Made by a program: the position numbers and the translations under genes
Part shown: positions 33,019 to 56,967 of the stretch, piece by piece
Layout: each line of letters starts with the position of its first letter
Position numbering within the stretch: position 1 is the first letter of the stretch
Notes under the pieces: model-generated
What the model was told of the DNA's origin: nothing
Databases searched by the model: none
Seen by the model: the letters and a program-made list of their open reading frames with translations, nothing else
Source: a virus
Virus genome (UHGV): UHGV-1550212
DNA length: 64,000 nucleotides
Strand: one strand, 5' to 3'

Positions 33019-33056
33019 ACAAAAGCAAGCAGACTACAATTGCAGTCTGCTTGCTT
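33019..33056 (-). terminator. intrinsic terminator
   Basis: 13-bp stem AAGCAAGCAGACT/AGTCTGCTTGCTT, then UUUUG; near-identical palindrome recurs at 49383-49410. Confidence 0.55.
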
Positions 33057-33077
33057 TGACATAGTTGTAATGTGAGT

Positions 33078-34319: not shown

Positions 34320-34344
34320 ATTTTGGGATGTTTGTTTTTTATTA

Positions 34345-35439
34345 TCATACAACGATAGTATCTCGTTTGCAATCTGTTTTGTCAAATATTGAACAACAAT
34401 ACGATGCAGATTGTTCTTTGATTTCAAGAGCTTCATCATTATCAAGTGATGAAATGCCATCTATGTATGCTTTTGCATTGCCAGCAATGTCATCATTTGT
34501 TAACAACGCTGCACGACGTTCAGTGCCAAAGAAGCCAAAGCACAATTGATGTTGCAGTGCTTCACGAGAAGTCTTGTCATCAAACTCTGATTTCATGTGT
34601 TGCATAAATTCGACAATATCATCAATGTCGCATTGAGTAAAGTCAATGCACAATTTATGCATGTACTTGAATCGTTTGTAGTCTGTTGCAAGAATTTCTG
34701 GGTGCACAATGAACAACGTCTTTTTGCTGTCTATTGGATTTGCAATGACTGATGCTTGAACATAATCGACAAGCATACCAGATTCACGAAGTTGCTCAAT
34801 TGTTTTGCCAAACACATGCCCAAGCGTGTCATCAAACCACTTCAAGTATGCTTCACTGTCTTCATCTTTTGACGCGCCAACAATGTAAATCTCATTGACT
34901 CCAAGTGCTTTGAGACGAGTATCAGACAACATAGTATTCAATTGATGCTGCACGTACAGCATTGGGCTGCTATGCAAAACCGTTTTAACAATCTCACAAG
35001 CAATGTCCATATATGCATAGTCAAGCTTTGCAGATTTTGACACATACACTGCACGTTGCTGCAATGGCTCAATTGCCGAGCATGTAGTTACAAAGTTGCC
35101 AACACATTCTGCTACTGCAATGTCATGCAAGTCATCTGCAATGTACACAATACTTGACAAGTCATCAAATGTTTGAACAAGTTGCTGAAGCTTTGTTTTG
35201 TAATTGCAGAGCATCAATGACTTGATGTTGCAATTACTTAGCATTGTCTTGATGAGTCGTTGACCTGCTTCAGTGCTGTCACCAGAAATGACATGCACAT
35301 CGCAGTCAAACCAGTTCAGCATGTCAATTGCATGCCGAACACCATATTGCATTTGTTTTGCAAACTTACCAGATTCATTGAACAGCATTTCACCTGACAT
35401 AATGCCGTCAAAGTCACATACGATTTGAAGTCTGTCCAT
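34345..35439 (-). CDS. HAD-superfamily (KdsC-like) sugar-phosphate phosphatase domain protein with unknown C-terminal domain
   Basis: IVCDFDGIMSGEMLFNESGKF (DxDG motif I), VHVISGDS, YIADDLHDIAV (motif IV), resembling KdsC/YrbI-type phosphatases. Confidence 0.5.
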   Translation of the reverse strand: MDRLQIVCDFDGIMSGEMLFNESGKFAKQMQYGVRHAIDMLNWFDCDVHVISGDSTEAGQRLIKTMLSNCNIKSLMLCNYKTKLQQLVQTFDDLSSIVYIADDLHDIAVAECVGNFVTTCSAIEPLQQRAVYVSKSAKLDYAYMDIACEIVKTVLHSSPMLYVQHQLNTMLSDTRLKALGVNEIYIVGASKDEDSEAYLKWFDDTLGHVFGKTIEQLRESGMLVDYVQASVIANPIDSKKTLFIVHPEILATDYKRFKYMHKLCIDFTQCDIDDIVEFMQHMKSEFDDKTSREALQHQLCFGFFGTERRAALLTNDDIAGNAKAYIDGISSLDNDEALEIKEQSASYCCSIFDKTDCKRDTIVV

Positions 35440-35803: not shown

Positions 35804-38800
35804 TTAACAAATTGATGATGTGCCATCAGTGTTTGCTACAACTGTCAATGCGCTATCAAACTCATCTTGCTGTAACACATGGTCAACTATGAGTGTTTTG
35901 CGAATTGCAGAAAGCTTAGTAAGCAACTGCATCAACACTTGCTGATAATTGATGGTGTTGACGTCATGCTCAGCGCCAACAATCTGCCCGTTGCTAAGCT
36001 TGCCGCTAATTTCATCAATGAGCAAGATGTTGCCAACTTTGTTTAAGCGTTGAGTCAAAATGAGATGCACGATTGCAAGACCTGCGAAAGTCCCTTCCAT
36101 ACCAGACATTTGACTTACACTTCGAATTGACTTCGAGCCCATCAAGTCAATCATCTTTAGCACATTGTTGTCATTGATGTCAAAGAACACTCGGTAGTTC
36201 AATGAATCAAGCAAATCATTGAGCTGTGCATTCAGTGATGTTGCAATTGCTGCAAAGACATATGAAACTAAGCCTCGTTTGCTTGTGCACTGCTTATATG
36301 CATTGTACACCAAGTTTGCAATGTTCCACTTTTTCGAAGCTTGCAAATCTTTCTTGAGAGCTTCAATTCGCACATTGTTTGCTGACAAGTCTGCTTGCAT
36401 TGTTGCAATTTCTGCATTGATGCTTAGCAGTTTTGAGTTTGCTTCAGTTTCATGCTGCTTAGCATCATCAATGTCGACTTGCAATGCAGCGTTTGCCACA
36501 ATATGCTGCTGAGTTTGCTGTGCATGTTCAAGTGCAAATGCTGCAGCAGTCTTGTCAATCTCAAGTTGTTTAAGAGTAGACTCATATGATGCTTTCTTAT
36601 CATATTCTGCTTGAGCAATTTCAAGTTCAGCATTTATTGCAGCCAGTTCTGATTCTACTGCAGATTTTGATTGCAATACATCTTGCTTTGCTTGTTCAGC
36701 TTTACGTTTGATGTCTGCAAGTTGATTTGTGATATCTGCAATTTGCGTTTTGACTGCTTCAACTTCAAGCAATGTTGCTGCAGTAGCCATTGGCTGTGCA
36801 ATGAATGCATCCAAGTCTCTTTGCGCATTGACTACAGTTCTTTGCAAGTCATTAAGCTTTTCTGCATGCATATCATATGCAGCTTTATGTGCTGTATTCA
36901 GTGCAGCAATTATTGCATTTGAATCTGTGACATCAATGATTGCTGCTTGCAATTGCTCAATCTCATACTTCAAATTGCCAATTTTGACAACATTCTCATT
37001 GAATTGCTCTGTCTTTTGCGCGTATTCTTGACGCAACTTAGCAAGCTCAGTTGACAACCACAGCTTGTATGCTTGCCCTGTGCCAGATGTCAAATCATTT
37101 GTGCACACAGGACATTTATCATTTTCAAGTTGCTTTTGCTTGTCTATAACATTGTCGATGTTTGTTTTTGCAGCAGATACTTCTGTTCTAAGTGCATTTT
37201 GAACAGTGTTGATGTCTTCAATTTGCTTTTGCAAAGCATCTATTTTTGCCCGAGTGTCTGCATTATATGACTTGCCAAGATTTACCAGCACAGAATCAAT
37301 GCGCTGCTTTGCTGCATCATATGCAAGCTTTGATTCATCAAGCTTTGTTCTGTACAATGATTCTGCATGCGCAACTTCTTTCTGCACTTTTGCAGATAGC
37401 TCATTCTGTTTTGTAAGCAGCTCAGCATATGTATTGTGCAGCTGTGAGCCAGATGCTATGACATTTGTGTATGCTGCATTAGCTTCATTGTCAATATTAG
37501 TGAGTTGTTGCTCAATCTGCGCTTTTACTGTTTGCAATTTAGACATGTCTTGCAATGCAAGTGCAGCAATGTCAAGCTCAACTTTGCGAATCTTTGCAAC
37601 GATGCTATCGACATTTGCTGTTGCATCTTCTACAGTTAAAATATCTGCAGGAATTTGATGCAGTCTTTTTGAGAGCTCTTCTACTTTTGCACGTGCTTTT
37701 GTAAGTTTTGCAGACCATTCCCTTTGATTATCTTGTCGTAACTGCAAAGAGTCATTGAGTTCATTGCAAGTTGTATTGAGAGACTCAAGTTCTGCTTTTA
37801 TTGCGACATCAGTCAATGCGGGCTTACTAAGGCCATCAAACAATGCGGCCTTTGCAGCATCATTAGAATTGCCCAGTTGCACGAATGTGTTGATGCCAAG
37901 AGTATCAAGCAACCAGTCATTCAATGAATTTGAATCCATTGCAATGATTTGGTCAAGTAATGTCTGATTGATGCAGACATATCGCGACAATTCCCAGATA
38001 GAACCAAAGATTGCGTATAGCGTGTCTTTGATTTCATGCTGTGGCACTACGTAGTCATCTGACAATCTTACAAGCTGCACAGTCTCATTGACTGCTGACA
38101 CGTTATCTCGCCATGAGCCATCTGCATTTATTCGAGAGCCCCGTTTGAATCTACGTTCAAGTGTTCGAGTTAATTTGTAGTGAACATTTTGACCAGCTAC
38201 TACATGTACAAATACACAAGATGCTTCAAGCTTATCATATGACTCATTGTCAATCAATTTGTCATTGAAGTATGTCAAAGCGTTCTGCTTTGTTGCTGCA
38301 GAAGACTGTCCAGCGTCAATAAAGCCAGTCAGCAGCCATTTAATGAGTCTGAAGATTGTTGTTTTGCCATTGCCGTTGTTGCCTCTAACTTGTGTAAGCT
38401 GTGCAAGATTGTCAAAGCTGACATCGACATCTTTCAATGCCATGAACTGATTTGCTTTGACATTTTGAATGACGTATTTTGCAACTTCAGTGTCAAAAGA
38501 CAATTTATCAATTTGCTCATCAATCAATGACTTGAACATGTCAACAAACTGCTGAGCGTCTTCAGTAGCAACTATAGCATTGCGTTCAATGTACGCATTG
38601 ACCCAGTCAAGTGCAGCATCTTTAAGCCATTCAGCAGTTTGAACTTTTTGCAGCAAATTGTCGCCATTTGCATCTACAGCATTGATTGAATCAATGACAG
38701 CAGAATCATACAGAATGTCAATTGCGGCAACAACGTATGAACTTACAAGATTCTGTGCAATGCGCTCAACAATGCCAGACAGTTCGGGCTTTGTGACCTT

Positions 38801-39730
38801 TGACTTGATTTTGATTTTGTTGATGCGACCAGGATTGATGAGTGCAATCTTATCTGTTTTGATGTCATTGTCAATTGTGATTGTATGATAATGCACAAGC
38901 TGCTCAAGCGAATGCCACTCTACTACAATTCGCTTGTTGTCAATATCGATGTCAAGCAAGTTGTAGCCATGTTCTGCAGTGCCCTGTTGCGTTGCAGTGT
39001 CATTCAACAAATAGTCGCCTTCACCAAAATCTCTGACAATTGGCGAGCCGCAGTATGTCAATGTCTTGGTGCCAGAAGTCCATATTGCATGTTTGTGAAT
39101 ATCACCCATTGCAACAAAGTTGCTGTGAAACTGTGTTGCATCTATACGACTGTCATTGTCACCACGAACAATGCAGTCATCAAAGTTGACGCAATTCTTT
39201 ACAGGGTCATGGAACAGCTCAATAACACACATTGATGACAATGCAGCAATCTGCGATTCGTCAAGTGATGCCCAAGGCGAATATGTGCCACCAGACCACT
39301 TCTCATTTTGAGCCCATACTGCAGCAGCAAAACCAGGTGCAAGCAGTTCAACTCTTGAACTGTTGATATACTTGATTCGCTTGTCATCAATTGCAGTTAC
39401 AAGCTTGTCAATGCTATCTGTCCACTGCATTTGTGAACCATCACCAGCATCAAATGTGTTATCACGTTGCTTCAAATCATGATTGCCAGCAGTAATGACA
39501 ATTTGAAGCTTGTCATTGACTTCAAGCATGCCTTTGAGCAGCTTAACAAACAGCGACTCTTCAAGTGAATTGCTGTTCCACTGCTCAAACACATCGCCAA
39601 CAATAAACACAAACTCAACCGACTTTGCTTTGTCAATTAGTTGTTTGTTGATGTGCTCATATTCTACGAAACGTCGTAAATGCCCTTGTCGAACATTATA
39701 TTGAATGTCTGCTATGTGAAGTGCTTTCAT
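35804..39730 (-). CDS. fused SbcD-SbcC (Mre11-Rad50-like) nuclease/ATPase
   Basis: N-terminal calcineurin-like phosphoesterase motifs (HIADIQ, IVGDVFE, TAGNHD, GDIHKH); Walker A GNNGNGKTT; long coiled coil with CPVC zinc hook; C-terminal LLIDE Walker B. Confidence 0.8.
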   Translation of the reverse strand: MKALHIADIQYNVRQGHLRRFVEYEHINKQLIDKAKSVEFVFIVGDVFEQWNSNSLEESLFVKLLKGMLEVNDKLQIVITAGNHDLKQRDNTFDAGDGSQMQWTDSIDKLVTAIDDKRIKYINSSRVELLAPGFAAAVWAQNEKWSGGTYSPWASLDESQIAALSSMCVIELFHDPVKNCVNFDDCIVRGDNDSRIDATQFHSNFVAMGDIHKHAIWTSGTKTLTYCGSPIVRDFGEGDYLLNDTATQQGTAEHGYNLLDIDIDNKRIVVEWHSLEQLVHYHTITIDNDIKTDKIALINPGRINKIKIKSKVTKPELSGIVERIAQNLVSSYVVAAIDILYDSAVIDSINAVDANGDNLLQKVQTAEWLKDAALDWVNAYIERNAIVATEDAQQFVDMFKSLIDEQIDKLSFDTEVAKYVIQNVKANQFMALKDVDVSFDNLAQLTQVRGNNGNGKTTIFRLIKWLLTGFIDAGQSSAATKQNALTYFNDKLIDNESYDKLEASCVFVHVVAGQNVHYKLTRTLERRFKRGSRINADGSWRDNVSAVNETVQLVRLSDDYVVPQHEIKDTLYAIFGSIWELSRYVCINQTLLDQIIAMDSNSLNDWLLDTLGINTFVQLGNSNDAAKAALFDGLSKPALTDVAIKAELESLNTTCNELNDSLQLRQDNQREWSAKLTKARAKVEELSKRLHQIPADILTVEDATANVDSIVAKIRKVELDIAALALQDMSKLQTVKAQIEQQLTNIDNEANAAYTNVIASGSQLHNTYAELLTKQNELSAKVQKEVAHAESLYRTKLDESKLAYDAAKQRIDSVLVNLGKSYNADTRAKIDALQKQIEDINTVQNALRTEVSAAKTNIDNVIDKQKQLENDKCPVCTNDLTSGTGQAYKLWLSTELAKLRQEYAQKTEQFNENVVKIGNLKYEIEQLQAAIIDVTDSNAIIAALNTAHKAAYDMHAEKLNDLQRTVVNAQRDLDAFIAQPMATAATLLEVEAVKTQIADITNQLADIKRKAEQAKQDVLQSKSAVESELAAINAELEIAQAEYDKKASYESTLKQLEIDKTAAAFALEHAQQTQQHIVANAALQVDIDDAKQHETEANSKLLSINAEIATMQADLSANNVRIEALKKDLQASKKWNIANLVYNAYKQCTSKRGLVSYVFAAIATSLNAQLNDLLDSLNYRVFFDINDNNVLKMIDLMGSKSIRSVSQMSGMEGTFAGLAIVHLILTQRLNKVGNILLIDEISGKLSNGQIVGAEHDVNTINYQQVLMQLLTKLSAIRKTLIVDHVLQQDEFDSALTVVANTDGTSSIC

Positions 39731-39818: not shown

Positions 39819-40155
39819 GCATTTTGATGATTGCATCTATCACAGTTTCACTGAGCAAGTAGTAGACAACGCTTATCAGCAATGATATCAGTACTGCAGC
39901 TGTGATAAATTGCAACGCATTCACAATTGCACGCACAAATGTTATCTGCGTGTTGTATGCAAGCACTATGCAGCATAGCACAATAATGACACACCAGACT
40001 ACAATTGCATATGCAGGCATCAATGAATTTGTCCATATGCAGTACAATACAGTAATTAGCATCAAAAATGCTATTGCTCTGATAACTGACACAATGATGT
40101 CTATGTAAGGCTTCATTGCACGCAAATGAACTCTTGGTTTATGTTGCTTCATCAT
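39808..40155 (-). CDS. multi-pass membrane protein
   Basis: 115 aa, highly hydrophobic. Confidence 0.5.
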   Translation of the reverse strand: MMKQHKPRVHLRAMKPYIDIIVSVIRAIAFLMLITVLYCIWTNSLMPAYAIVVWCVIIVLCCIVLAYNTQITFVRAIVNALQFITAAVLISLLISVVYYLLSETVIDAIIKMLAK

Positions 40156-41390
40156 GACTTTATGTACAATTCTGCAAGTTGTCTGGTGTACAGTCGTGGA
40201 TTATGATATGCTTTCCAATACGCAGTAGACTTTATTGCAGCAAGAATTTCATCATAATGTTTGACTGCTTCTGCTACAACTTCATCAAGCACGCTCAAAT
40301 CTTCTACACTGACAAGCAACCATTTTTCTACAATATCAATGAACTCCTGATTGCAATTGAAGCCATACTTGTAGTTGCAAGTATCAAGTACAAGTGGAAT
40401 GCAATCATTTGTCAATGCTTCAAAAAATCTACGAAGACTGAAACAATTCTCATCATATGATGGAATGCTCAATGTAAACTTGGCAGTCTTGATGAGTTGC
40501 AAATACTCTTCGTATGGAATCAGAGGACCATTGTGCTTCCATTGATTATTGTGTCGTCTTGTCGTGTACTTGAACAAAAACTTTGAATTGTCAAGTTCAC
40601 AAAGATGGTCCATGCGTAAAATGTAGTTATAGCGGTCTCTTCTGTCAGGCCAACTGTCAGTCATCGCAAACACAAAGTCTCTTTGCTTGTCACATTTTGC
40701 TGACATACCTCTATGCTGACACATGCAATACCAATATTGCTGCGATGGGCTGAACTCAAACTTTGAATGATGCTCACTTCCATCTTTGCATTGCTGAACA
40801 TAAATGTTGTCAGGCACAAAGTGAAAATAAAAGTGTCGAATTTGCAAGTCATTGATGTAGTCAAGCTTATGCTGCAATGGGTCTTCACAGAAATTGTAAC
40901 ACTGAATATGCTTTGCTGCTGCGTACTCAGCAACTATGAACGTGCACATCCATTGCAATGCAATATCTTCACTCTTCAAAAAGTTTACAAGCGGCTCATT
41001 TGGATGCGCTTTGCATTCATTGAACATTTTGTACCACTTGCATTGCTCCATATCGTACTTTGATACTGTATTGCCATTAAAGAACGACACAGTGTCAATT
41101 TTGAATGCATCAAGTTGTTTATGCACAATGTCAAGTGCTTGTGCGTATGTGATTGTCTCATCAGACATTATCTGCGCAAACTTGATTGGATGCGCATGCA
41201 AATTTGCGATAGTGTCTGCCGACATTTTACGCTGTGTGTGATAATCGACATACAAAAACTGACACTTGTCTGTAAGCAATTCAAGCATTGCTACAGATTT
41301 CCATCGAATTGCTTGAAAGAAATTGAAGTGTGCAGTTTGAAAGATGAGATGCGTAGGTTTATCAGAATGAGTCAAAGTTTGCATGGACAA
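40152..41390 (-). CDS. putative glycosyltransferase-like protein (cassette copy A1)
   Basis: Paralog of 44432..45988 (shared EDPLQHKL, PSQQYWY, FTLSIPSYDENCFSLRRFFEAL...CIPLV); the last block resembles a GT-B C-terminal motif. Confidence 0.4.
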   Translation of the reverse strand: MSMQTLTHSDKPTHLIFQTAHFNFFQAIRWKSVAMLELLTDKCQFLYVDYHTQRKMSADTIANLHAHPIKFAQIMSDETITYAQALDIVHKQLDAFKIDTVSFFNGNTVSKYDMEQCKWYKMFNECKAHPNEPLVNFLKSEDIALQWMCTFIVAEYAAAKHIQCYNFCEDPLQHKLDYINDLQIRHFYFHFVPDNIYVQQCKDGSEHHSKFEFSPSQQYWYCMCQHRGMSAKCDKQRDFVFAMTDSWPDRRDRYNYILRMDHLCELDNSKFLFKYTTRRHNNQWKHNGPLIPYEEYLQLIKTAKFTLSIPSYDENCFSLRRFFEALTNDCIPLVLDTCNYKYGFNCNQEFIDIVEKWLLVSVEDLSVLDEVVAEAVKHYDEILAAIKSTAYWKAYHNPRLYTRQLAELYIKS

Positions 41391-43536: not shown

Positions 43537-43565
43537 ATTGTACAACATGCAAAATGCATTTGCAT
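43537..43565 (-). promoter_or_regulatory. sigma70-like promoter (ATGCAA-N17-TACAAT) with adjacent 17-bp tandem repeats
   Basis: Followed ~55 nt downstream by the terminator-like hairpin 43438-43481. Confidence 0.4.
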
Positions 43566-43594
43566 TTTGATACAACATGCATTTTGATACAACA
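43561..43594. repeat. perfect 17-bp tandem direct repeat x2 (TGCATTTTGATACAACA)
   Basis: Read directly; overlaps the -35 region of promoter 43537-43565, next to an AAAATGCA-TT-TGCATTTT palindrome. Confidence 0.7.
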
Positions 43595-43601
43595 TATATT
43601 G

Positions 43602-43817
43602 TCATTTTGCACAGTCTGAGGCAATCAAATCTTTGTCAAAGCATTCATCTATAATGTCTTCAATAAGATACGCTTCGACATTGTTAAGCTTCAAGATATC
43701 TACGAGTTTTGCTTTGATATCGCAAGCTAATGCAGATTCAACTGTATGCAATATGACTGATGATGCGACATGCTTGTCTGTCATCATTTGTAATTGCTGT
43801 GGTGTTACTCTACTCAT
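43602..43817 (-). CDS. hypothetical small protein
   Basis: 71-aa ORF with 4-nt overlap to the upstream kinase gene. Confidence 0.35.
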   Translation of the reverse strand: MSRVTPQQLQMMTDKHVASSVILHTVESALACDIKAKLVDILKLNNVEAYLIEDIIDECFDKDLIASDCAK

Positions 43818-44411: not shown

Positions 44412-44440
44412 ACAGTACAACGTAGTTATGCTCATTGCAC
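44412..44440 (-). promoter_or_regulatory. weak sigma70-like promoter (GTGCAA-N17-TACTGT)
   Basis: Upstream of the dNMP kinase gene; -10 is a poor match. Confidence 0.3.
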
Positions 44441-45988
44441 TTCTACGAATGGCTCTTTCAACACAAAGCTGTCACCATTGCAACATGCGGCTGAGCCATC
44501 GTCTGCATCAAGTGCACATGACATATCAGACTTGCAGAACTTGCAATATAAACATGACCATGCATGACTCATGAAGTTGTTTGCTTCACAAATTGCGCAA
44601 CGCTCATGCATAAGTGCATTGTCGCAATTATCACAAGACTTCTTGATTGGCACAGTTTTGTTGATGTATGCAAGATGCAATGCAATATCATACACAAAGT
44701 CACCCGTATATTGCTGAATGAAATCAGTATGCCACAACTCTTTTAACAATTGTGCATGTCTATATGGCTGAACAATGTCTTCAAGATGCTGCAAGTCATC
44801 ATCGCTAACCATGAGCTTCTTAATGACAAATTGTTTGAACTGTGGCCATCTGTCAAACATATAGAGTTTGCATGAGTTGTGCACAAGTGGAACACAGCCA
44901 AGCACAATGCTTTCACAGAATCTACGCAAACTAAAACAGTTTGCATCATATGACGGCACAATCAATGTGAATCTGCTATGCTTGATGAGTTCAAGGTATG
45001 TGTCATATGGCAGTAGCTTATCTGACAATTGCTGTTGTTGTTTGTCTCTGCTGAAAAATCTGAACACAATACCCTTGTCAATTGCATCTTGATTGTGCAG
45101 ATGCATGAGTTTGTTGATGAGTTCTGTGCGTTCAGTTTTGTCTCGCCAAGTATTCGTCAATGCAAATGCAAAATTCAGTCGCTTGTCATCAAACGTCGCT
45201 TCAATATCATTCCAAGTTTTGTCATGCAAATACCAGTATTGCTGTGATGGGCACCATCCATAATATGCAATAGCATCTTGTTCTGCTGTAACGTCATACA
45301 CATATGCAGAATTGTATTCAAGGCCAAGCCTTTTGACGTTGTTGCAGTCATGAAAGTACCAATGCTGCACTTTGAATATCTTTGATGCACTGAATGCGCT
45401 TTCATATGGCCCTGAATAGCGATAGTCAATGTAATTGAGCTTGTGCTGCAATGGGTCTTCGACAAAGTTGTTTATGACTGTGCCTTGTTGTTTGCCCTTA
45501 GTCTTGCGAGCATTCAATGCAACATTGTATTGCATGATGACTGACAGCATCTCATACACTACATACATGAGTGCTTTGTAGACTGAGCCTGCTGCGTCAA
45601 TTAGTGGCAAATCACGTTTGACTGATGTAGCGCCAAATGTCTTGCAATATGCAGAAAATGTGTCAAGTTCTGCTTGCTGAAATGAATTGCATGCACCATT
45701 GAATATGTTGAATGTTGCAATGTAGCTCATATTGCAAGATGTCATTGACATATCAAGACGCTTCATAATGTCGACAATGCGACATTGAGCAAAATCTGAC
45801 ACATCAACATATTTGACATGATGGCCTGATGTAGTCAAGCCATCTGCGACATCTTTCATCTGTGGCACAAAGCCTACAACAATGAATAAGTCATCTTTGT
45901 TTGCTCGTTCAAACATTGCTGCACTTTTCCAAGTCAATGAATTGAAAAAGTCTATGTAGCCAGTTTGAGTGATTATATGCGTTCTCAT
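44432..45988 (-). CDS. putative glycosyltransferase-like protein (cassette copy A2) with Cys-rich C-terminal extension
   Basis: Paralog of 40152..41390 (EDPLQHKLNY, PSQQYWY, FTLIVPSYDANCFSLRRFCESIVLGCVPLV); extra CDNCDN...C cluster. Confidence 0.4.
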   Translation of the reverse strand: MRTHIITQTGYIDFFNSLTWKSAAMFERANKDDLFIVVGFVPQMKDVADGLTTSGHHVKYVDVSDFAQCRIVDIMKRLDMSMTSCNMSYIATFNIFNGACNSFQQAELDTFSAYCKTFGATSVKRDLPLIDAAGSVYKALMYVVYEMLSVIMQYNVALNARKTKGKQQGTVINNFVEDPLQHKLNYIDYRYSGPYESAFSASKIFKVQHWYFHDCNNVKRLGLEYNSAYVYDVTAEQDAIAYYGWCPSQQYWYLHDKTWNDIEATFDDKRLNFAFALTNTWRDKTERTELINKLMHLHNQDAIDKGIVFRFFSRDKQQQQLSDKLLPYDTYLELIKHSRFTLIVPSYDANCFSLRRFCESIVLGCVPLVHNSCKLYMFDRWPQFKQFVIKKLMVSDDDLQHLEDIVQPYRHAQLLKELWHTDFIQQYTGDFVYDIALHLAYINKTVPIKKSCDNCDNALMHERCAICEANNFMSHAWSCLYCKFCKSDMSCALDADDGSAACCNGDSFVLKEPFVEVQ

Positions 45989-47151
45989 GATTTGAATGTT
46001 TGTTCAAGAATTGTATAGCACTGTGCAATCATTGTTGCAAGAGCTTTTTGCTGAAGCTGTTTGCAATTTGAAGATATTGTGTATTGCTGACGCTCAGTTG
46101 TAGTACTGCTTAATGTCGCAAATTGCAGGTACTCATCTTCTGACATGATATCAGCAAACAATGCAGACAATTCATAATCTACAATGACATTTGAGCAGTT
46201 TGCAAGTACGCCTTCAACCCATCGATTTGGCAACAAACATGCTTGCACATACAATGAATCGCCGACTACAAGATTGCACATTGACTGCGACATTACATAC
46301 GTCATCATGTCATATGGCACTTTGTACTTAAGTGTGAAGTTTTGTGCTGCTGACTTAATTGCTTGCAGAATTGTGTCATCAAGATATGATGTTATAAGGC
46401 AAGTATTGTATGCCTGCATAATGTAACGCTCAATCACGCTTCTACGATACTCGTCAAGATATGTGAAACCTGCACAACTTGCACAACATGCATATTGCTG
46501 CTTTATGTCAGCAAAGCTACACACATGCGCTTCAATTGCATTTTGCATTGTTGCTTGTCGTTTGAGCAATCTTGGCTCTTTAATGCATTGAAGCTTCAAT
46601 GCATTGACTGCTGCAATGATTTGCAATGGCACAAACACGCATTGAGACTCATCAAGCCAAGCATACTTGAGATTTTTATGTTGACACAGATGCGTAATGT
46701 TGTCTTTTTGTGATTCTAAGTACTCTTTGTAATTATGCAATCGCTTTGTCAATGTGCACTCTTTGTCAAAATCAAATCGCAAATCAGTTGTTAGTGTAAA
46801 TTTGCGAACATTTGACAAGCACCATGCTTTGAATGCATTCCACAGAACATCTTGCTGAAATTCTGAACAATGTTCAAGAGCAGCCTTTGAGCCCTGCCAG
46901 AATATTGCGCAATCATCTGATTTTGCACACTTCAGCATATCTTGCCATGCATGTATGCTATTGATGATATGCACTTTATTATGCACAAGCTCATTAAGTG
47001 TTGCATGCTTGTTCTCAGGGTCGCCAAACACGTATACTGTATCAAACATTGTTTGAACAAACCCTGCAAATGCAATGGGTTCTGTATGTTTAAGATGCTG
47101 TATGTCTGAACGCACACATGTGTCAAATTTCAAAATGAAGAGTTTGCTCAT
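45985..47151 (-). CDS. hypothetical enzyme-like protein (cassette copy B2)
   Basis: Paralog of 41372..42547; promoter at 47181-47210. Confidence 0.45.
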   Translation of the reverse strand: MSKLFILKFDTCVRSDIQHLKHTEPIAFAGFVQTMFDTVYVFGDPENKHATLNELVHNKVHIINSIHAWQDMLKCAKSDDCAIFWQGSKAALEHCSEFQQDVLWNAFKAWCLSNVRKFTLTTDLRFDFDKECTLTKRLHNYKEYLESQKDNITHLCQHKNLKYAWLDESQCVFVPLQIIAAVNALKLQCIKEPRLLKRQATMQNAIEAHVCSFADIKQQYACCASCAGFTYLDEYRRSVIERYIMQAYNTCLITSYLDDTILQAIKSAAQNFTLKYKVPYDMMTYVMSQSMCNLVVGDSLYVQACLLPNRWVEGVLANCSNVIVDYELSALFADIMSEDEYLQFATLSSTTTERQQYTISSNCKQLQQKALATMIAQCYTILEQTFKS

Positions 47152-47848
47152 ATGCTTTGCAATTATCTATTACATGTTGATATTGTACTTCATCTATGAT
47201 GTGATTTGCAATGACACCATATGACGTGTCATACATTGGCATCTTCTCATATGACAATGCTGCGTCAAGATTGCATATCACATAATTGCAATGCACAATG
47301 TCATCTACATTGTCACTAACTGCTACGATATTGACGCAATTTGCAAGAAATGCATCATCAAAGTCTACTTGATTGCATGCAACCTCATAATCTGCAGCAC
47401 TTCTTGGGTACCAATATAACTCAATGCCGGCACTACTAAGTAGTCGCAAGCCATCTATGTGATGATACAAGTCAACAAAATGCACTTGCTTAACGCCTGC
47501 TTGCAAAATAAGCTTTGCGCAATCAATGCATGGACTATATGTTACATATAGCACTGCGTCATTTGCAGTCGCATTGCCATATTTGCACAGCTTCATCAAT
47601 GCATTTGATTCTGCATGCAAAACTTCTTTGTTGGTTTTGATGCCTGCTGATGTTGCATGTTCACAACAATTTGACATGCCAGTTGGCATGCCATTGTAGC
47701 CATCTGAAATTATGCAGCCATCTTTTACAAGCAATGCGCCGACTTTTGCTCGCTGAGCATGTGAATTTAATGACCAGAGCTCAGCCATTTTAAGATATAT
47801 GAGATTTCGTTGAAACCACTTTGTTTCAGACCAAGTTAGCCATTTCAT
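47123..47848 (-). CDS. dCMP deaminase (zinc-dependent cytidine/deoxycytidylate deaminase family)
   Basis: HAESNAL and YSPCIDCAKLI zinc-binding motifs; ~90-aa C-terminal extension. Confidence 0.8.
   Translation of the reverse strand: MKWLTWSETKWFQRNLIYLKMAELWSLNSHAQRAKVGALLVKDGCIISDGYNGMPTGMSNCCEHATSAGIKTNKEVLHAESNALMKLCKYGNATANDAVLYVTYSPCIDCAKLILQAGVKQVHFVDLYHHIDGLRLLSSAGIELYWYPRSAADYEVACNQVDFDDAFLANCVNIVAVSDNVDDIVHCNYVICNLDAALSYEKMPMYDTSYGVIANHIIDEVQYQHVIDNCKAYEQTLHFEI
47181..47210 (-). promoter_or_regulatory. sigma70-like promoter (TTGCAA-N18-TACAAT)
   Basis: Upstream of 45985..47151, inside the 3' end of the dCMP deaminase gene. Confidence 0.45.
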
Positions 47849-47852: not shown

Positions 47853-49235
47853 TTATAGTGAATTTATGATTTTGCTGAAGTCTGTTACAATGTTTGAATG
47901 CAACTCAATGAGATAGTTGTCTTGCAATGTCATAAGCTCATCAAGTTCATCTACACTTAATGACTTGAAGACTTCTGCACAATGCTTGGCATTTTTGATG
48001 TGTGCGACTTTATGATACTTGATAAAGTCAGGACACACACAATTATTCACGTACATACAAGGCAAGCCTGCAAGCATTGATTCAGTTGCTCTGAATGTAA
48101 TTGCGTTGCATTGTTTCATATTCTCTTCACACACAATGTATGCAAAATCGAACTGTGACAAGTATGTTAACATGTCAAAATACTTGATTGTGCCATCATA
48201 GACATGTGGCATATCAATGTCAATATTGCCGACAACATGAGTTTCGATGTCTGCGCAGCCAAGCAAATCAATGACTTCTTGTTTGCGTTCAGCACACATG
48301 TCATTCCAAGCCACCATCGGCATTGCAGTAGTCAACTTGCCTGATTGCAATTTTGCTAAACGTTTTTCATTATGTGATGCATACAATGGAATGCCTTCAA
48401 GTCTTGCATGCTGAATTGCGTTGACATTGATTTCTGTCAACATTGACAACGCATTATGTATGTTCTGCGCTTGTGTGACAACTGTCATCTTTTTGCAGTG
48501 CAATCTAAAGTTTGCAATGTGTGGCACGAGTCGTAAATCATACCATAGCCATACAATGTCGCCCTTCCATGATTCAATGAGCTGCTTGTGCTGTTTGTAG
48601 ATGACTGACTGACTCATCGAGTCATTCATTGCTGAGCATACAATGTACAACACACCATATTTGTCAATTGAGTGCTGCACATAGTCAGCTGAGCAGCATA
48701 GCACATCTTTGTCGAAAAGTTTTGGGTCATGCACTTCTGCATCATCTACAATAAGATGCGCCTTGTATTGATGCCGCTTTGTTACATCAATGATGCGAGC
48801 AATTGCGAAACATTCTCTGCTTTGAATGTCTGTCTTGTCTTGTCGCAGCTGGTCTTGTGTTCGTACTGGATACGCAGGTTTCAGTATTACAGGCACAAAA
48901 TGTGTTTTTGCAGAATATGGTGCATCTACTGCAGCAAACTCCGCGTTGCATCGTTGTGAATGCAGATGTCGTGCATATGATTGCAACAATTCATGAATCA
49001 TTGCAATATACTCTTCCAATTCAAACAGCTCGTGTTCAGTTGCGTTTGTTATGTCAACTACGACAGTTTGTCGCACAATTGGATACACACAAATAACGTA
49101 ATCATTATATGGCAGTGGAATGCCTATAAATGTTGAGCATCTGTTTCGAAGCCATGCAATGCAATCAACATCAAACACAATTTCATATTGCTGCTGCAAA
49201 GCATTTAATTGCGCTATAATCAAATCATTGTGCAT
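47853..49235 (-). CDS. putative GT-B fold glycosyltransferase
   Basis: C-terminal ...YIVCEENMKQCNAITFRATESMLAGLPCMYVN resembles the E-x7-E / G.P donor-binding motif of GT1/GT4 enzymes; two tandem promoters upstream. Confidence 0.45.
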   Translation of the reverse strand: MHNDLIIAQLNALQQQYEIVFDVDCIAWLRNRCSTFIGIPLPYNDYVICVYPIVRQTVVVDITNATEHELFELEEYIAMIHELLQSYARHLHSQRCNAEFAAVDAPYSAKTHFVPVILKPAYPVRTQDQLRQDKTDIQSRECFAIARIIDVTKRHQYKAHLIVDDAEVHDPKLFDKDVLCCSADYVQHSIDKYGVLYIVCSAMNDSMSQSVIYKQHKQLIESWKGDIVWLWYDLRLVPHIANFRLHCKKMTVVTQAQNIHNALSMLTEINVNAIQHARLEGIPLYASHNEKRLAKLQSGKLTTAMPMVAWNDMCAERKQEVIDLLGCADIETHVVGNIDIDMPHVYDGTIKYFDMLTYLSQFDFAYIVCEENMKQCNAITFRATESMLAGLPCMYVNNCVCPDFIKYHKVAHIKNAKHCAEVFKSLSVDELDELMTLQDNYLIELHSNIVTDFSKIINSL

Positions 49236-49264
49236 GTTCGTATTGTTTTATCATATATGAATAT

Positions 49265-49293
49265 ATTGTACAACATGTATTGAGCTTTTGCAC
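49265..49293 (-). promoter_or_regulatory. sigma70-like promoter, proximal of a tandem pair (GTGCAA-N17-TACAAT)
   Basis: 29 nt upstream of the GT-B gene ATG (49235). Confidence 0.5.
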
Positions 49294-49317
49294 AACACTT
49301 GTTGTTAAAATATCGTC

Positions 49318-49346
49318 ATTGTACAACATAAAGTGCATACTTGCAC
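49318..49346 (-). promoter_or_regulatory. sigma70-like promoter, distal of a tandem pair (GTGCAA-N17-TACAAT)
   Basis: ~53 bp upstream of the first copy; a third, degenerate unit overlaps the terminator palindrome. Confidence 0.45.
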
Positions 49347-49374
49347 TTTGTGTTGCTAAAAATATCGTTATTGT

Positions 49375-49410
49375 ACATAAAACAAGCAGACTGCAATTGC
49401 AGTCTGCTTG
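49375..49410 (-). terminator. intrinsic terminator
   Basis: 28-bp perfect palindrome CAAGCAGACTGCAATTGCAGTCTGCTTG followed by UUUUAUG on the minus strand; downstream of 49456..50001. Confidence 0.55.
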
Positions 49411-49455
49411 CACTTTACTAACCCTTAAAATCAATGACACTATGTCAATGTCATT

Positions 49456-50001
49456 TTAATTTGCGTCTGCTTCCTGCAATTCAGCTTCAGCAGTCTTTTC
49501 AGCAAGTTCGGCTTGCTTACGCTTGTCGATTTCCTGCAAACATGCGTCAAGTGCAGTGGCGTTTTCACGATACTGCTCATCGAACTTCTGTACTTCTGCT
49601 GCAGGTGCCTCAAGCAGATTGTTGAGTGAATCAAGTGCTGCAGCAACCTGAGCACCCTTGAACTTCGTCGTCGATACAGCACGAACAATGTACTTGAACT
49701 CGAAGATGCCCATGGTGCTTCGTCCTTTTGCAGCGCCCGTAGCCCATGCAGCAAATGCGACAACATCACGCATAAGTTGCATATCAAACTCAAGCTGCGG
49801 CAAAACAAGTTCGCACACATTACGTGCAACAGACTTGAGCAATTCGCCATCAGTCGTGACAATCATCTGCATTGACTGCGATTTGTCTTCGAGTTCTTTT
49901 CGAGCTTCACTGAGCGACTTTTTGAGTGCTTCCAGTTGCTCCATTGTCATGTCTTTGAGTTCAGTTGCAGGCTTTGCTGCAACAGCATTTTTCTTTGCCA
50001 T
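49456..50001 (-). CDS. hypothetical Lys/Ala/Glu-rich protein
   Basis: Start set to ATG at 50001 (MAKKNAVAAKP...); coiled-coil-like; locally GC-richer coding sequence. Confidence 0.45.
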   Translation of the reverse strand: MAKKNAVAAKPATELKDMTMEQLEALKKSLSEARKELEDKSQSMQMIVTTDGELLKSVARNVCELVLPQLEFDMQLMRDVVAFAAWATGAAKGRSTMGIFEFKYIVRAVSTTKFKGAQVAAALDSLNNLLEAPAAEVQKFDEQYRENATALDACLQEIDKRKQAELAEKTAEAELQEADAN

Positions 50002-50015
50002 ATGAATAAATTGTG

Positions 50016-50576
50016 TTATGAGATGATTTTGATGATTGCTAATGCTAATGCTGCTAAGCACAATGCACTTAACAGAATCTTCCATATTGCAGCGGAACAT
50101 CTTAACAATCGTAAGGGCTGTTCTTCTGCATATGCAAGATATTCAAGTTCAGCAACATTTGACATCACAGTTCTAATGATGCCATTACCAGTGTAGTTAT
50201 GTCGAAGCGTTACGACATCAAGCAGATTGTTTTGCACAAGTTGATTGAAGACAGGTTCCATGCGTTCATGCATGATGTGCTCAACAATTGCAACTGAGTC
50301 AAGTGCTTCAAATTCTGTACCTTGTATTGTTGCAATGACTTCAGCAGGGAGCTGCGTATGCACAATGAGACATCGTTGTTCATTGAACAATGCAAATCCA
50401 CTGTTCTTCAAAAATGTCAAAAAGTACTCATGCTCAGGGTCATTAAGATAGTCAAGCAGATATTGATGCCACTTGTTAGCTTCTGCATCAAGCTTGTTTA
50501 GACGTCGAATGACACCAAATGGCCATAAAGCCAATTTGACGTTGTGGAGGATGGTTTTATATTTCATATGCATCAA
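50016..50576 (-). CDS. hypothetical protein with C-terminal membrane anchor
   Basis: 186 aa ending in hydrophobic LSALCLAALALAIIKIIS. Confidence 0.45.
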   Translation of the reverse strand: MMHMKYKTILHNVKLALWPFGVIRRLNKLDAEANKWHQYLLDYLNDPEHEYFLTFLKNSGFALFNEQRCLIVHTQLPAEVIATIQGTEFEALDSVAIVEHIMHERMEPVFNQLVQNNLLDVVTLRHNYTGNGIIRTVMSNVAELEYLAYAEEQPLRLLRCSAAIWKILLSALCLAALALAIIKIIS

Positions 50577-52844: not shown

Positions 52845-52873
52845 AATGTACTACGTAGCATCAACTTTTGCAC
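52845..52873 (-). promoter_or_regulatory. sigma70-like promoter (GTGCAA-N17-TACATT)
   Basis: Upstream of 52385..52825. Confidence 0.45.
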
Positions 52874-52878
52874 AAATG

Positions 52879-54474
52879 TCAAAGCTTGAATTTTTGCACT
52901 TTTGCATCTACTGGCATCTTTTCAGCGTCATAGATTCGTTTTCGAGCAGCAAAGTGTTGCATGTCATAATTGCAGTAGCAATAGCCTTTGCGAAGCTTGA
53001 CAAGCATATCACTGTGAATTGTAAGCTTATGTGCAATATCAATAATGATTGCTTTCTGCTTAAGTGGATGCTTACGCAACAGTCGCCCAATTGACTGCAA
53101 TGTTACGTTGTCAGATTTGCCAATCATCAAGAATGCAGCATAAAACCAAGCATGCACAGATACGCCTGTAGATAATGTACCAGTTGTTGCAATCATGATG
53201 TGTCTGTCAGGCTCTGCTTCCATCATTGCAAGCATGTCTTTGCGTTCATGCAAGGGTACATCACCTCTAATGATGTGAACAACCTTGTCAACACCAGACT
53301 GCTGTATGAATGTTTGACAAGCATCATAGATGTTCTGCACATGGTCTCGTCGTTTGCAAAGTACAAGAGCATTTTTGTCAAGCGAACAAATGATTTTTGC
53401 AATGAGCTTGTTAGCATCGACATAGTTCATGCAATGATGTTGTTCTGCTGGAAGCAGTCTTGCAGTGTTATCAAACACTTCAGGATGCTCTTCAAGATAC
53501 TGCACAAATGGCGCATCATATTCTGCTGAATGCTCAATGACTACTCGTTTGATTTCAAAGTCAGACACAATGTTCTTTTCAAGTGCTTGAGCTACGCCAA
53601 ATGTGCCCAATATTGGCCCAATGTATGATTCAATTGTCAAACGAGCTGCAGTATGCTCAAGTGGCAATGAACCAGACACTCCAAGACGATAATGAGCTTT
53701 TGTGCAATGACTGAAGATTTCACGAATTGATGCTGCAGGTGCACCATGAGCTTCATCAGTTACAATGAAGTCAAACTGTTCGAAAAAGTCTGCTGGCATA
53801 TTGACAAGACTTTGATATGTGCCGACAACCATATCTGCATCTTGCATCTTGTACTCATTGCGAACACCTGAATGGATTTTGTAGAGTTTGTAATTCTTGT
53901 TTGCTAAATCTGACTCATTTTGTTGATAGCTGACAACAATATCGTCAAACGCTTGTGACACGAGATGCACCGAGGGCACAATCATAAGTGTTTTGCCATT
54001 GATTCTCTTGCTGTCTTTTAAGAAGCGACTAATTACATAAACAAGAGCTGTTTTGCCATAAGAAGTCGCAAGGCGCAAACAACATTTCTTGAATTTGCAA
54101 GCAGTCAAAATGAATTTGAGCTGGTCATCACGCATGTCAAATGGCATATCAAGACATTCTGACCATTGCTCAAGCTCTTCAAGTGACACAATGCGGTCAA
54201 AGTTGTCAATGAGGCCCTCAATCTTGACTTCATATGGAATTGGCTTACGCAATTGTAGGTCCCAGATACGCTTCCATAAGCCAAATGGCAGGTATACGCC
54301 ATTGAACACATAGCAAATTTGCCCATTCCAATCTGTTTTGCGTCCTTTGCGCTTATTGACTGCTGCTGCAACAAAGTTTGGCACTTCTGCAGTAGCTTCA
54401 GCATACAATTGCTTGACTTCCAAATCATTTGCTTCGACAATCTGAAGCAAATCGCCTATGACTTTAAGTCTCAT
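52879..54474 (-). CDS. SF2 DEAH-box helicase (UvsW-like)
   Basis: Motif I LATSYGKTA, motif II IVTDEAHGA, motif VI QSIGRLLR; start trimmed to the ATG at 54474 downstream of the terminator hairpin at 54491-54528. Confidence 0.75.
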   Translation of the reverse strand: MRLKVIGDLLQIVEANDLEVKQLYAEATAEVPNFVAAAVNKRKGRKTDWNGQICYVFNGVYLPFGLWKRIWDLQLRKPIPYEVKIEGLIDNFDRIVSLEELEQWSECLDMPFDMRDDQLKFILTACKFKKCCLRLATSYGKTALVYVISRFLKDSKRINGKTLMIVPSVHLVSQAFDDIVVSYQQNESDLANKNYKLYKIHSGVRNEYKMQDADMVVGTYQSLVNMPADFFEQFDFIVTDEAHGAPAASIREIFSHCTKAHYRLGVSGSLPLEHTAARLTIESYIGPILGTFGVAQALEKNIVSDFEIKRVVIEHSAEYDAPFVQYLEEHPEVFDNTARLLPAEQHHCMNYVDANKLIAKIICSLDKNALVLCKRRDHVQNIYDACQTFIQQSGVDKVVHIIRGDVPLHERKDMLAMMEAEPDRHIMIATTGTLSTGVSVHAWFYAAFLMIGKSDNVTLQSIGRLLRKHPLKQKAIIIDIAHKLTIHSDMLVKLRKGYCYCNYDMQHFAARKRIYDAEKMPVDAKVQKFKL

Positions 54475-55684: not shown

Positions 55685-55771
55685 CGCAATAAAATTTTAG
55701 AAAGTTTAACAAAAAGTTTGAAATGAACTCTTCAGAAAAGCTTCAGAAGTTTATTTGTTATTTGTATATGT

Positions 55772-55800
55772 ATTGTATAACATGCAAAGTACTTTTGCAC
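55772..55800 (-). promoter_or_regulatory. sigma70-like promoter (GTGCAA-N17-TACAAT)
   Basis: Upstream of 54554..55684 with ~87-nt leader. Confidence 0.5.
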
Positions 55801-56967
55801 TTATCTTGCATGACCACAGTCATCTGCAAGCAGTTTAGCATGACCGCAGTCATATACTGCAACATAACCGACGTCAATCATCTCTTGTTCATCTTGACCG
55901 ATATCTTCAATATGTTCTTTTGTCTTCAAATGACACCAGTGCTTATGAATGGTTGACTTGTCATCTGACAACTGCGGGTTGAGCGCGAAGTCAGCTGAGT
56001 CTACTTGTTCACCTGCAAGATGCTTTCTAATGGCGTCAATGACTTCGTTGTCATCCATCCATTCGAATATTGTAATGCAAGTGTAGCCATGCTTAAGAGC
56101 AAGTTGAGTTTTGTCGAAGTGGTAGAATTTGCCAACTGGCTTATTGTGTTTTGTGCGCCCAGTTAAATATGCAAAGCCATATGTTGCATTGTGTGACCAA
56201 AGAGGATTAACTTCAATCAAAAGTTTGCAGTATTCATTACAATAGTCAAGGTCATATGACCATCGCCCAAGATTGACATTATCAAGCCCGCAATCAATAC
56301 CAAGTTCTTGCAGCAATTTGTCGTGCCACCAATGGTTTGCTCGTGATTTTACATGACCTTGAGCATCACGGCATTTAGTAGTCATACAAAACCATGGCAC
56401 ACCATGTCGTTCCATATTGACTTCTTGAACGCGTTCAAGATTGCCGCTCTTATTGCCATAACGTTGCTGTTTTGTTTGCAATGCAGCATCAATATTGCCC
56501 CATGCATTGCCATATCGTTTTACAACAGTTTGTTTGCGTTTTTCAACATCACAGCACTTATTGCCATATTTACGCAATTTAGTGTCAAATGCTTTTTGTG
56601 TATTGCCTATGCCACGTTTGCCCCATTTGCGCTCTTTGCCTTGTTGACATCGTTCTTGGTCACCCCATGTGCTGCCATATCGTTCTAAATTTGTTTGTCT
56701 ACGTTTTTCAACATTGCCTGCTTTGCATCCATGTCGTGCTAAATTTGTTTGTTGTTGTTTAGCTACGCAATCTTTGTTACGTGCAGGAAATTCAACGCCT
56801 AATGAACGTAGACAGCCAATTCTACGATTATAATTACGTTTAATATTGCCGTGTGATGTTTTACAAGGCCCATATCTTACAAACTCAGTTGTTCTCAACA
56901 ACTCATCTCGCTCTTGCTCAAGCTCTGCAATGCGCTTCTCAAGAGCTTCACCAGTTAGTGGCGTCAT
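55801..56967 (-). CDS. tandem-repeat protein (RYG/KYG units) with C-terminal nuclease-like domain; paralog of 1777..2976
   Basis: Same architecture: LTGEALEKRIAELEQERDELL coiled coil, repeats (ARHGCKAG, ERYGSTWG, KYGNKCC, RYGNAWG, RYGNKSG), C-terminal LLIEVNP...H. Confidence 0.55.
   Translation of the reverse strand: MTPLTGEALEKRIAELEQERDELLRTTEFVRYGPCKTSHGNIKRNYNRRIGCLRSLGVEFPARNKDCVAKQQQTNLARHGCKAGNVEKRRQTNLERYGSTWGDQERCQQGKERKWGKRGIGNTQKAFDTKLRKYGNKCCDVEKRKQTVVKRYGNAWGNIDAALQTKQQRYGNKSGNLERVQEVNMERHGVPWFCMTTKCRDAQGHVKSRANHWWHDKLLQELGIDCGLDNVNLGRWSYDLDYCNEYCKLLIEVNPLWSHNATYGFAYLTGRTKHNKPVGKFYHFDKTQLALKHGYTCITIFEWMDDNEVIDAIRKHLAGEQVDSADFALNPQLSDDKSTIHKHWCHLKTKEHIEDIGQDEQEMIDVGYVAVYDCGHAKLLADDCGHAR

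Follow-up and report, generated by a model that had tools for sequence, protein, structure and literature searches.

The window, that is, the whole 64,000-nucleotide stretch of the virus genome UHGV-1550212 that was analysed, carries every substantial ORF on its minus strand and comes from a large phage, from the region devoted to replication and nucleotide metabolism. Its genes code for a gp32-type single-strand-binding protein, helicases, a split family-B DNA polymerase and a fused Mre11/Rad50-like protein, as well as two ThyA-like proteins, a dCMP deaminase and two GT47-like transferases. The probable T4-likeness of the phage is read from T4-type replication genes such as gp32, the split polymerase, the Mre11/Rad50-like protein and a protein with a beta-glucosyltransferase-like fold, together with a related contig of 175 kb. 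Based on gp32, the closest isolated phages are Chryseobacterium phages, with phage MA9V-1 as the nearest isolate at 31% identity, followed by T4-type coliphages. A DNA-level search of the phage collection with the window gave no match, nor did a ThyA search across bacterial genomes that could have given a clue to the host. A core Shine-Dalgarno sequence was found for 1/58 ORFs of the window, and its general absence hints at a Bacteroidota host. Housekeeping promoters in Bacteroidota are of a different kind, with -33 TTTG and -7 TAnnTTTG elements. The -7 motif TAnnTTTG is not enriched in the window (59 observed versus 63.6 expected), which rules out this promoter type as the one used here. A search for tRNA and tmRNA genes found none, and Rfam returned nothing at gathering thresholds over the whole window.

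The locus under study precedes a 460-amino acid gene (47853-49235, minus strand) whose product adopts a GT-B fold and is extended at the N terminus by an additional domain of ~110 amino acids. A 97%-identical copy is encoded on a 175.5-kb IMG/VR contig (IMGVR_UViG_3300045988_149023). No sequence match was obtained in Pfam, PHROG or PDB, and homologues are rare: a set of 1.8 billion representative proteins contains only about ten. The AlphaFold model, for which these homologues were used, is confident, with a pLDDT of 87, and its best PDB matches were T4 DNA beta-glucosyltransferase (1qkj, E 5.7e-12, TMt 0.72-0.77) and then other GT-B enzymes, which bears out the GT-B label first given to the gene from its sequence and makes a role of the modelled protein in DNA modification plausible.

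An intergenic gap of 220 bp (49236-49455) separates this gene, which starts at 49235, from an upstream 214-amino acid ORF (49456-50100, minus strand, stop codon TAA at 49458-49456) with only a weak match to DUF7784. Read along the minus strand, the order of elements is the TAA, an A/U-rich hairpin, AAAGTGCAAG, a palindrome, TTTT, an ATG, the TACAAT box of what we call unit 3, AACGATATTTTTAGCAACACAAA (between the unit 3 -10 box and the P2 -35 box), promoter P2, GACGATATTTTAACAACAAGTGTT (between the P2 -10 box and the P1 -35 box), promoter P1, 29 nt and the ATG of the 460-amino acid gene. Folding of the whole gap as RNA placed the A/U-rich hairpin, AATGACATTGACATAGTGTCATT followed by GATTTT (49433-49455, minus strand), directly 3' of the stop codon; it does not vary in three close relatives and is possibly a weak first terminator. 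A permissive Rfam scan of positions 49100-49600 gave only sub-threshold chance matches, and a known structured RNA at the locus was ruled out for want of any Rfam match. Two small ORFs cross the gap, one of 71 amino acids from a GTG at 49440 on the minus strand and one of 59 amino acids from a TTG at 49280 on the plus strand. They overlap the promoter and terminator elements and are unlikely to be genes, nothing supporting them.

Three TTGTACA boxes had been described here in units of ~50 bp, and all three are present, on the plus strand at 49266-49272, 49319-49325 and 49371-49377. On the coding (minus) strand they read as TGTACAAT boxes at 49377, 49325 and 49272, spaced by 52 and 53 bp, and three such boxes within 113 nt have an expectation of ~0.005. 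Two of the units have the full -35/-10 geometry that was originally predicted, each with the arrangement GTGCAA-17-TACAAT on the minus strand. P1 (49265-49293) has its GTGCAA at 49293-49288, a 17-nt spacer and TACAAT at 49270-49265, with a predicted start at ~49258; the 29 nt between its -10 box and the ATG hold no Shine-Dalgarno sequence before 49235. P2 (49318-49346) has GTGCAA at 49346-49341, a 17-nt spacer and TACAAT at 49323-49318, with a predicted start at ~49311. In both, as in a sigma-70-type promoter, the -10 box has an A at position 2 and a T at position 6, and the -35 element lies upstream at a distance within the 16-18 bp usual for that type; the sequences just after the -10 box differ (ATATTC versus GACGAT). 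Two minus-strand A/T tracts read from the sequence, ATATTTTTA (49357-49365, ~-54 to -46 of the predicted P2 start) and ATATTTTAA (49305-49313), precede the -35 boxes of P2 and P1, respectively, by ~10-20 nt and might act as UP-like elements.

A generic sigma-70 scanner called neither P1 nor P2. Nor did it call any other site of this class, because GTGCAA matches the E. coli TTGACA at only 3/6 positions. It is thus the motif recurring in the phage itself, and not the E. coli consensus, that underlies the promoter call. With a weight matrix built from six other sites, the three tested units being left out, 16 coding-strand sites scored above 14 bits and the other strand peaked at 5.0. P1 ranked sixth with 37.5 bits and P2 eleventh with 24.9 bits, so that their match to the phage consensus upholds both as promoters, at which initiation would be expected. 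In the window, TTGTACAAT occurs 12 times versus 1.7 expected, and of the sites matched by a -35/-10 regular expression, 12 are on the minus and 3 on the plus strand. The frequency of TGCA in the window is five times expectation, so ordinary shuffles understate the expected number of TGCA-containing -35 boxes. For this reason an internal control that keeps the odd k-mer content, the spacing of TGCAA to TACAAT compared strand against strand, was used: TGCAA precedes minus-strand TACAAT with a 17-nt spacer in 7/64 cases and with an 18-nt spacer in 2/64, ~0.4 being expected per spacing, and plus-strand TACAAT has TGCAA at 16-18 nt in 0/58 cases.

The sites of this class lie 20-90 nt upstream of ORF starts. 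Their consensus is TAGTGCAAAA-N11-TGTTGTACAATAT, with a longer form, GTTGTACAATATCAACATATAA, common to several sites; phage-wide it can also be written (G/T)TGCAAA-N-GTTGTACAATAT, with GTTG conserved before the -10 box. In relative L002, whose glucosyltransferase-like protein is 45% identical, the motif was found on the coding strand only and at orthologous places, namely upstream of gp32, downstream of the helicase and in front of the homologue of the 460-amino acid gene. It is not present in Chryseobacterium phage MA9V-1, and exact-pattern scans of viral contigs, both for the promoter and for the palindrome, retrieved one 175-kb IMG/VR relative only. We regard the comparative sequence evidence that the promoter class is real as good.

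Upstream of the promoters lies the perfect 28-bp palindrome that had been noticed from the sequence, CAAGCAGACTGCAATTGCAGTCTGCTTG (49383-49410, minus strand), with a 13-bp stem, a loop AATT and a T tract at 49382-49379. It lies 46 nt 3' of the stop codon of the upstream gene on the coding strand. The perfection of the palindrome is in itself unremarkable, needing merely a self-complementary 4-nt loop such as AATT. A terminator scanner called the element on the minus strand alone, with 13 pairs, of which 7 are G-C, the loop AATT and a tail TTTTAT; the RNA dG is -23.3 kcal/mol, and the DNA dG is -14 with a z of -4.5. In relative L003, one A-T pair of the stem is replaced by G-C with both sides changed, and this compensatory change supports the stem. 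The suggestion that the palindrome is a terminator is thus strengthened, and it reads as an intrinsic terminator of the coding strand. It has the G+C-containing 13-bp stem, the 4-nt loop, the T run and the position 3' of a stop codon that characterise such terminators, but differs from them in the shortness of its T tract (TTTT, four residues) and in the nesting of its stem between a -35 copy and a -10 copy.

The recurrence of the palindrome at 33023-33056, which the original prediction had pointed out, holds with one mismatch, and no further copies were found in the window at up to 3 mismatches. In this second terminator-cassette copy (33009-33058, minus strand), the stem CAAAGCAAGCAGACTGCAATTGTAGTCTGCTTGCTTTT contains one G-U pair, and after it come a degenerate box, TTCTAT (33014-33009), and GAC. 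Its homology to the 49.4-kb cassette, which has the same orientation, extends over ~55 nt and takes in degenerate forms of the -35 flank and of the -10 box (TTCTAT); the IMG/VR relative has an identical copy. A third terminator of the stem family lies at 19374-19405 (minus strand), with AGACTGC...GCAGTCT followed by TTTGTACATA and the geometry TTGCAG-15-TACATA, like unit 3; no other promoter is visible between it and the next gene. Altogether, 3/7 strong coding-strand terminators of the window (49.4, 33.0 and 19.4 kb) share the stem AGACTGC...GCAGTCT, and in each a TGTACA-like box follows the T run. Additionally, the terminators at 3554, 7901, 29137 and 49411 each have a consensus promoter directly after them.

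Unit 3, the most upstream of the three, was described as having a -10-like box alone, which did not hold. The unit has a -35 region of its own, AAAGTGCAAG (49407-49416, minus strand; GTGCAA at 49413-49408 plus flank), which makes up the left foot of the palindrome and is separated by 32 nt from the TACAAT -10 box at 49370-49375 (minus strand). In the window, AAAGTGCAAG has two copies only, in units 3 and 2, and is identical to the P2 -35 region; TACAATRACGATATTTT likewise has two copies only, in the same two units. Their confinement to units 3 and 2 indicates that the units are duplicates, beyond mere matches to a consensus. Judged by its sequence, unit 3 is a full paralogue of P2 with a spacer of 32 nt instead of 17, the spacer being this long because it contains the palindrome. 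The overlap with the palindrome that had been ascribed to the last unit is correct in so far as the palindrome sits in the unit 3 spacer, and incorrect for the -10 box, which starts 7 nt past the palindrome. As a promoter, unit 3 did not stand up, since it scored 1.8 bits, which is background, and its -35 copy is 32 nt from the -10 box. A second -35-like hexamer, TTGCAG (49396-49391), lies in the descending arm of the stem 15 nt from TACAAT, so that neither candidate falls within the 16-18 bp spacing. The -10 box of unit 3 is probably vestigial. The geometry TTGCAG-15-TACAnn is common to unit 3 and the 19.4-kb terminator, where no other promoter is seen, and on this ground unit 3 may hold a weak terminator-embedded promoter.

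The array-bearing lineage comprises the window, L001 and L003. Close relatives are ~95% identical in DNA, and the full array is kept in all three. L002, L012 and L013, which are 36-46% identical at the protein level, have just one promoter between a terminator and the gene, and their terminator stems differ in sequence; the junction is therefore old and the triplication specific to the lineage of the window. In the three close relatives, n=11 columns are variable between terminator and ATG, and 0 of these fall in the five hexamers, an avoidance which is weakly significant (P ~0.08). P1 and the upstream units do not differ significantly in constraint (3/64 versus 8/82 variable positions, P = 0.35). 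The retention of the array in all three close relatives makes some selective value of the duplication possible.

A survey of indels in a three-way alignment of ~15 kb at ~95% DNA identity showed that the larger non-coding indels lie in promoter cassettes at 43.6, 52.9 and 55.8 kb. Between the window and L001, the largest indels measure 26 nt (52.9 kb) and 17 nt (43.6 kb), both in promoter cassettes, and the rest consist of one of 6 nt and three of 2 nt. L003 differs by indels at the 43.6-kb and 55.8-kb cassettes. All of these indels are small, and none of the cassettes could be linked to an exchange of whole genes. The 43.6-kb promoter of L003 is a single, plain GTGCAA-17-TACAAT, to which the window adds 47 nt of repeated -10-like and TGCA pieces; the region is longer in L001 than in L003, with two TGTTGTA boxes, and falls short of the window only by one 17-nt repeat copy. 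A duplication of 26 nt gives the window a second -35 box at 52.9 kb, where L001 has a single GTGCAA-17-TACATT, and at 55.8 kb two tandem -10-like boxes are present in L003. Since these indels are polymorphic at promoter cassettes, duplication of the promoter part is recurrent, and because partial duplications are both common and polymorphic, slippage is indicated as the origin of the array rather than design. Tandem Repeats Finder did not report the 52-53-bp units, which are too diverged.

We consider it reasonably probable that a large T4-like phage has in this gap a composite cassette of terminator and promoter, that slippage duplicated the promoter part and that unit 3 is dead. According to this model, the 13-bp stem-loop and its T tract would stop or attenuate transcription coming from the upstream genes, and the tandem promoters P2 and P1, with predicted starts ~53 bp apart, would restart transcription of the beta-glucosyltransferase-like gene and of the nucleotide and DNA-modification genes behind it. 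The array would have originated by local tandem duplication of a ~52-bp promoter module (A/T tract, -35 box, 17-nt spacer and -10 box) via replication slippage or unequal recombination. The most upstream copy, in which the palindrome stretches the spacer to 32 nt, would for that reason most likely be dead as a promoter and serve as terminator. The locus would then represent a clean transcription-unit boundary for a cluster of DNA-modification genes.

Cassettes of this kind are already known from T4-like phages as promoter-early stem-loops, or PeSLs (Arbiol et al. 2010, PMC2839356; Comeau et al. 2014, PMC4122927), and no new mechanism is opened by the present one. A PeSL lies between genes and combines an A/T-rich tract and a sigma-70-like promoter with a terminator stem-loop, the latter placed between or overlapping the -35 and -10 boxes; PeSLs are repeated genome-wide near indels between close relatives, and degraded PeSLs with several mis-spaced -35/-10 copies have been put down to recombinational slippage (PMC2839356; PMC4122927). 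The cassette described here likewise combines an intergenic terminator stem-loop with a -35/-10 promoter and an upstream A/T-rich tract, its promoter part is repeated at many intergenic sites (~16 here), its stem-loops form a sequence family, indels between close relatives occur at the cassettes, and mis-spaced -35/-10 copies are found as in slippage-degraded PeSLs. The differences lie first in the consensus, (G/T)TGCAA-17-TACAAT with GTTG before the -10 box in contrast to TTGACA/TATAAT in PeSLs. The 17-nt spacing and the TACAAT fit a PeSL promoter, whereas the 3/6 match of GTGCAA to TTGACA left the generic scanner silent; published PeSL promoter sets also deviate from the consensus, with TTTACW and TTGYVH (PMC4122927). 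At the 3' end of the cassette there is a start codon but, unlike in PeSLs, no Shine-Dalgarno sequence. The stem is long (13-16 bp, AGACTGC...GCAGTCT) in contrast to the G-tract/C-tract stem of PeSLs, and the spacing becomes 32 nt where the stem-loop occupies the spacer. Gene shuffling and mini-circles are described for PeSLs, whereas the changes observed at the present cassettes are small indels. Moreover, the phage is distant from the T4 group in which PeSLs were studied (gp32 26-31% identical). The PeSL idea would thus be extended to a distant T4-like group in which terminator-promoter cassettes are hot spots of slippage and recombination, with promoter copy number caught changing between ~95%-identical genomes and a promoter consensus usable for annotating a poorly sampled phage lineage.

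A competing explanation holds that all three units are working promoters, selected because they let the DNA-modification genes be expressed very strongly or in stages (early versus middle). Judging from T4, it is plausible that a DNA glucosyltransferase has to be made early and in quantity. In spite of the 11 substitutions around them, the three -10 boxes and the two -35 boxes with 17-nt spacing do not vary in the three relatives, the whole array is kept in all of them, the difference after the -10 boxes of P1 and P2 could alter kinetics, and the TTGCAG-15-TACAnn of unit 3 recurs at the 19.4-kb terminator directly before a gene. The background score of unit 3 nevertheless argues against it, array retention says little among relatives ~95% identical, and similar partial duplications vary in copy number between the same relatives, which is the behaviour of neutral slippage. 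The original prediction had likewise taken the stacking as a sign of strong or differently timed expression; nothing in the data shows selection for it, and one promoter suffices at this position in the relatives at 36-46% identity. We hold the three-promoter explanation to be unlikely, and the array is explained no less well by slippage in a regulatory cassette prone to recombination than by adaptive stacking.

Alternatively, the three hairpins, i.e. the palindrome and the inverted repeats of P2 and P1, could be functional, either as DNA operators for a dimeric phage or host regulator or as elements of attenuation, stability or processing in the leader RNA of transcripts initiated farther upstream. 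P2 is enclosed in the inverted repeat CAACACAAAGTGCA/TGCACTTTATGTTG (49324-49355, minus strand), which spans its -35 box and spacer. Among 44-nt genome windows, a background which keeps the TGCA-rich composition, the P2 and P1 regions rank in the top 0.6% and top 0.8% for self-complementarity, the intergenic RNA taken whole (235 nt) has z = -5.7, and in each unit a hairpin ends just before TACAAT. PeSL stem-loops are similarly found between or overlapping the -35 and -10 boxes (PMC2839356). Against this, the three close relatives have no compensatory changes in the P1 and P2 hairpins, and the substitutions in the P2 hairpin of L001 and L003 are non-compensatory and weaken it. For most other promoters of the class, no unusual degree of structure was seen (overall test P = 0.085), the arms are built from parts of the consensus (TGCA, TGTTG) so that some self-complementarity comes free, and the structures have no Rfam match. 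A function of the three hairpins beyond termination is accordingly improbable in our view.

More speculatively, the cassettes could be the PeSL equivalents of a little-known T4-like lineage infecting a non-Shine-Dalgarno host, possibly of the Bacteroidota, in which the GTGCAAA-N-GTTGTACAATAT promoters would be read by a phage-encoded or reprogrammed sigma factor, and unit 3 and the 19.4-kb cassette would both be dual-purpose, joining a stem-loop terminator to a weak structure-dependent promoter (TTGCAG-15-TACAnn). The whole of this combination seems improbable to us.

Finally, the 49.4- and 33.0-kb cassettes flank a 16.3-kb block of DNA-modification and recombination genes. It is very improbable that the cassettes are chiefly a recombination module mediating excision, insertion or exchange of that block, as proposed for PeSL mini-circles. 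No relative was found without the block or with it exchanged, and in L002, L012 and L013 the genes around the glucosyltransferase-like gene keep their order, with terminators that differ; besides, PeSLs move small ORFan cassettes, unlike a 16-kb block with replication/recombination-type domains (the fused Mre11/Rad50-like protein). In favour of such a module are the homology of the two equally oriented copies over ~55 nt, the absence of any further strong coding-strand terminator from 33.0 to 49.4 kb, the concentration of indels at regulatory cassettes in close relatives, and the PeSL-mediated excision that was experimentally shown in RB49 and phi1 (PMC2839356).

Returning to the composite terminator-promoter cassette, its P2 and P1 resemble other tandem promoters. 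Tandem promoters for the host polymerase include A1/A2/A3 of T7 and P1/P2 of the E. coli rrn operons, which are roughly 120 bp apart. As in these and in native E. coli tandem promoters, at least two promoters in the same direction would feed one transcription unit. The spacing of 52-53 bp is tighter than in T7 and rrn, and the copies here are recent paralogues and predicted promoters. In E. coli, tandem promoters cease to occlude each other once their starts are separated by more than 35 bp, and their joint output is 1-2x that of a single promoter (PMC8830795); at 53 bp, no mutual start-site occlusion would be expected between P1 and P2, and their output would likewise be 1-2x that of one promoter.

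Examination of the terminators in the window revealed two copies of one cassette, at 33021-33058 and 49383-49416, which flank a 16.3-kb block devoid of any other strong coding-strand terminator. This block carries the BGT-like gene together with genes coding for a dCMP deaminase, two GT47-like proteins and kinase-like, Mre11/Rad50-like and ThyA-like proteins. It may be transcribed as a single long unit, or else constitute a module whose boundaries are the direct repeats. A further minus-strand terminator (19405-19374, in the region 19330-19405) precedes a 1113-aa ORF, the likely ATG of which lies within ~36 nt after it. No consensus promoter of the phage's own recurrent type was found between this terminator and that ATG, and the only promoter-like feature in the region is TTGCAG-15-TACATA, part of which lies within the stem. 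Its geometry is that of unit 3, the most upstream promoter copy of the 49.3-kb array.

Comparison with the close relatives L001 and L003 distinguished three promoter cassettes that vary. The first, a second array of promoter parts on the minus strand (43537-43620), contains the repeated 17-nt unit TGTTGTATCAAAATGCA. L001 lacks one of the window's repeat copies; the L003 counterpart, over which the window is 47 nt longer, is a plain GTGCAA-17-TACAAT promoter. In the second (52845-52905), the window and L003 share a 26-nt duplication that supplies an additional -35 box and is missing from L001. The third is the gp32 promoter (55770-55860), which is arranged differently in L003, with two -10-like boxes. 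Variation between the window and L003 was also seen within a 388-aa ORF (55801-56967), where window positions 56124-56963 were left out of the BLAST alignment with L003 (positions 260-1109) and showed many indels in a global alignment, between flanks 94-99% identical. This part of the gene may have been replaced, or may evolve rapidly.

Six genes (47853-49235, 47123-47848, 44432-45988, 40152-41390, 33438-34460 and 29156-30214) look like a DNA hypermodification set. They encode a protein similar to T4 beta-glucosyltransferase with an extra N-terminal domain of ~110 aa, a dCMP deaminase, two GT47-like transferases and two ThyA homologues; the divergent member of this last pair is possibly a pyrimidine hydroxymethylase.

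The oligonucleotide composition of the window (1-64000) is extreme. Relative to base composition, TGCA occurs 1136 times vs ~230 expected and TTGC 949 times vs 200 expected; 8-mers such as TTGCTGCA reach 27 occurrences vs 0.7 expected, and GATC is found once vs ~230 expected. These counts suggest enrichment of TGCA on both strands and, from the near-absence of GATC, strong restriction avoidance of this site.

Across all ORF starts in the window, a core Shine-Dalgarno 4-mer was found at -20 to -4 in only 1 of the 58 minus-strand ORFs, and the regions 5' of the starts are A-rich and G-poor. The near-absence of Shine-Dalgarno motifs, together with the affinity of gp32 to Chryseobacterium phages, hints at a Bacteroidota-type host, although the phage promoter motif in the window is not of the Bacteroidota -33/-7 type.

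Among the replication and recombination genes, two separate ORFs (6510-7802 and 10096-11601) encode a split family-B DNA polymerase, the halves being ~2.3 kb apart with other genes in between. A single 1308-aa protein (35804-39730) is a Mre11-like/Rad50-like fusion, comparable to a 1326-aa metallophosphoesterase of Chryseobacterium phage MA9V-1. The genome of MA9V-1 also has an annotated sigma factor gene.
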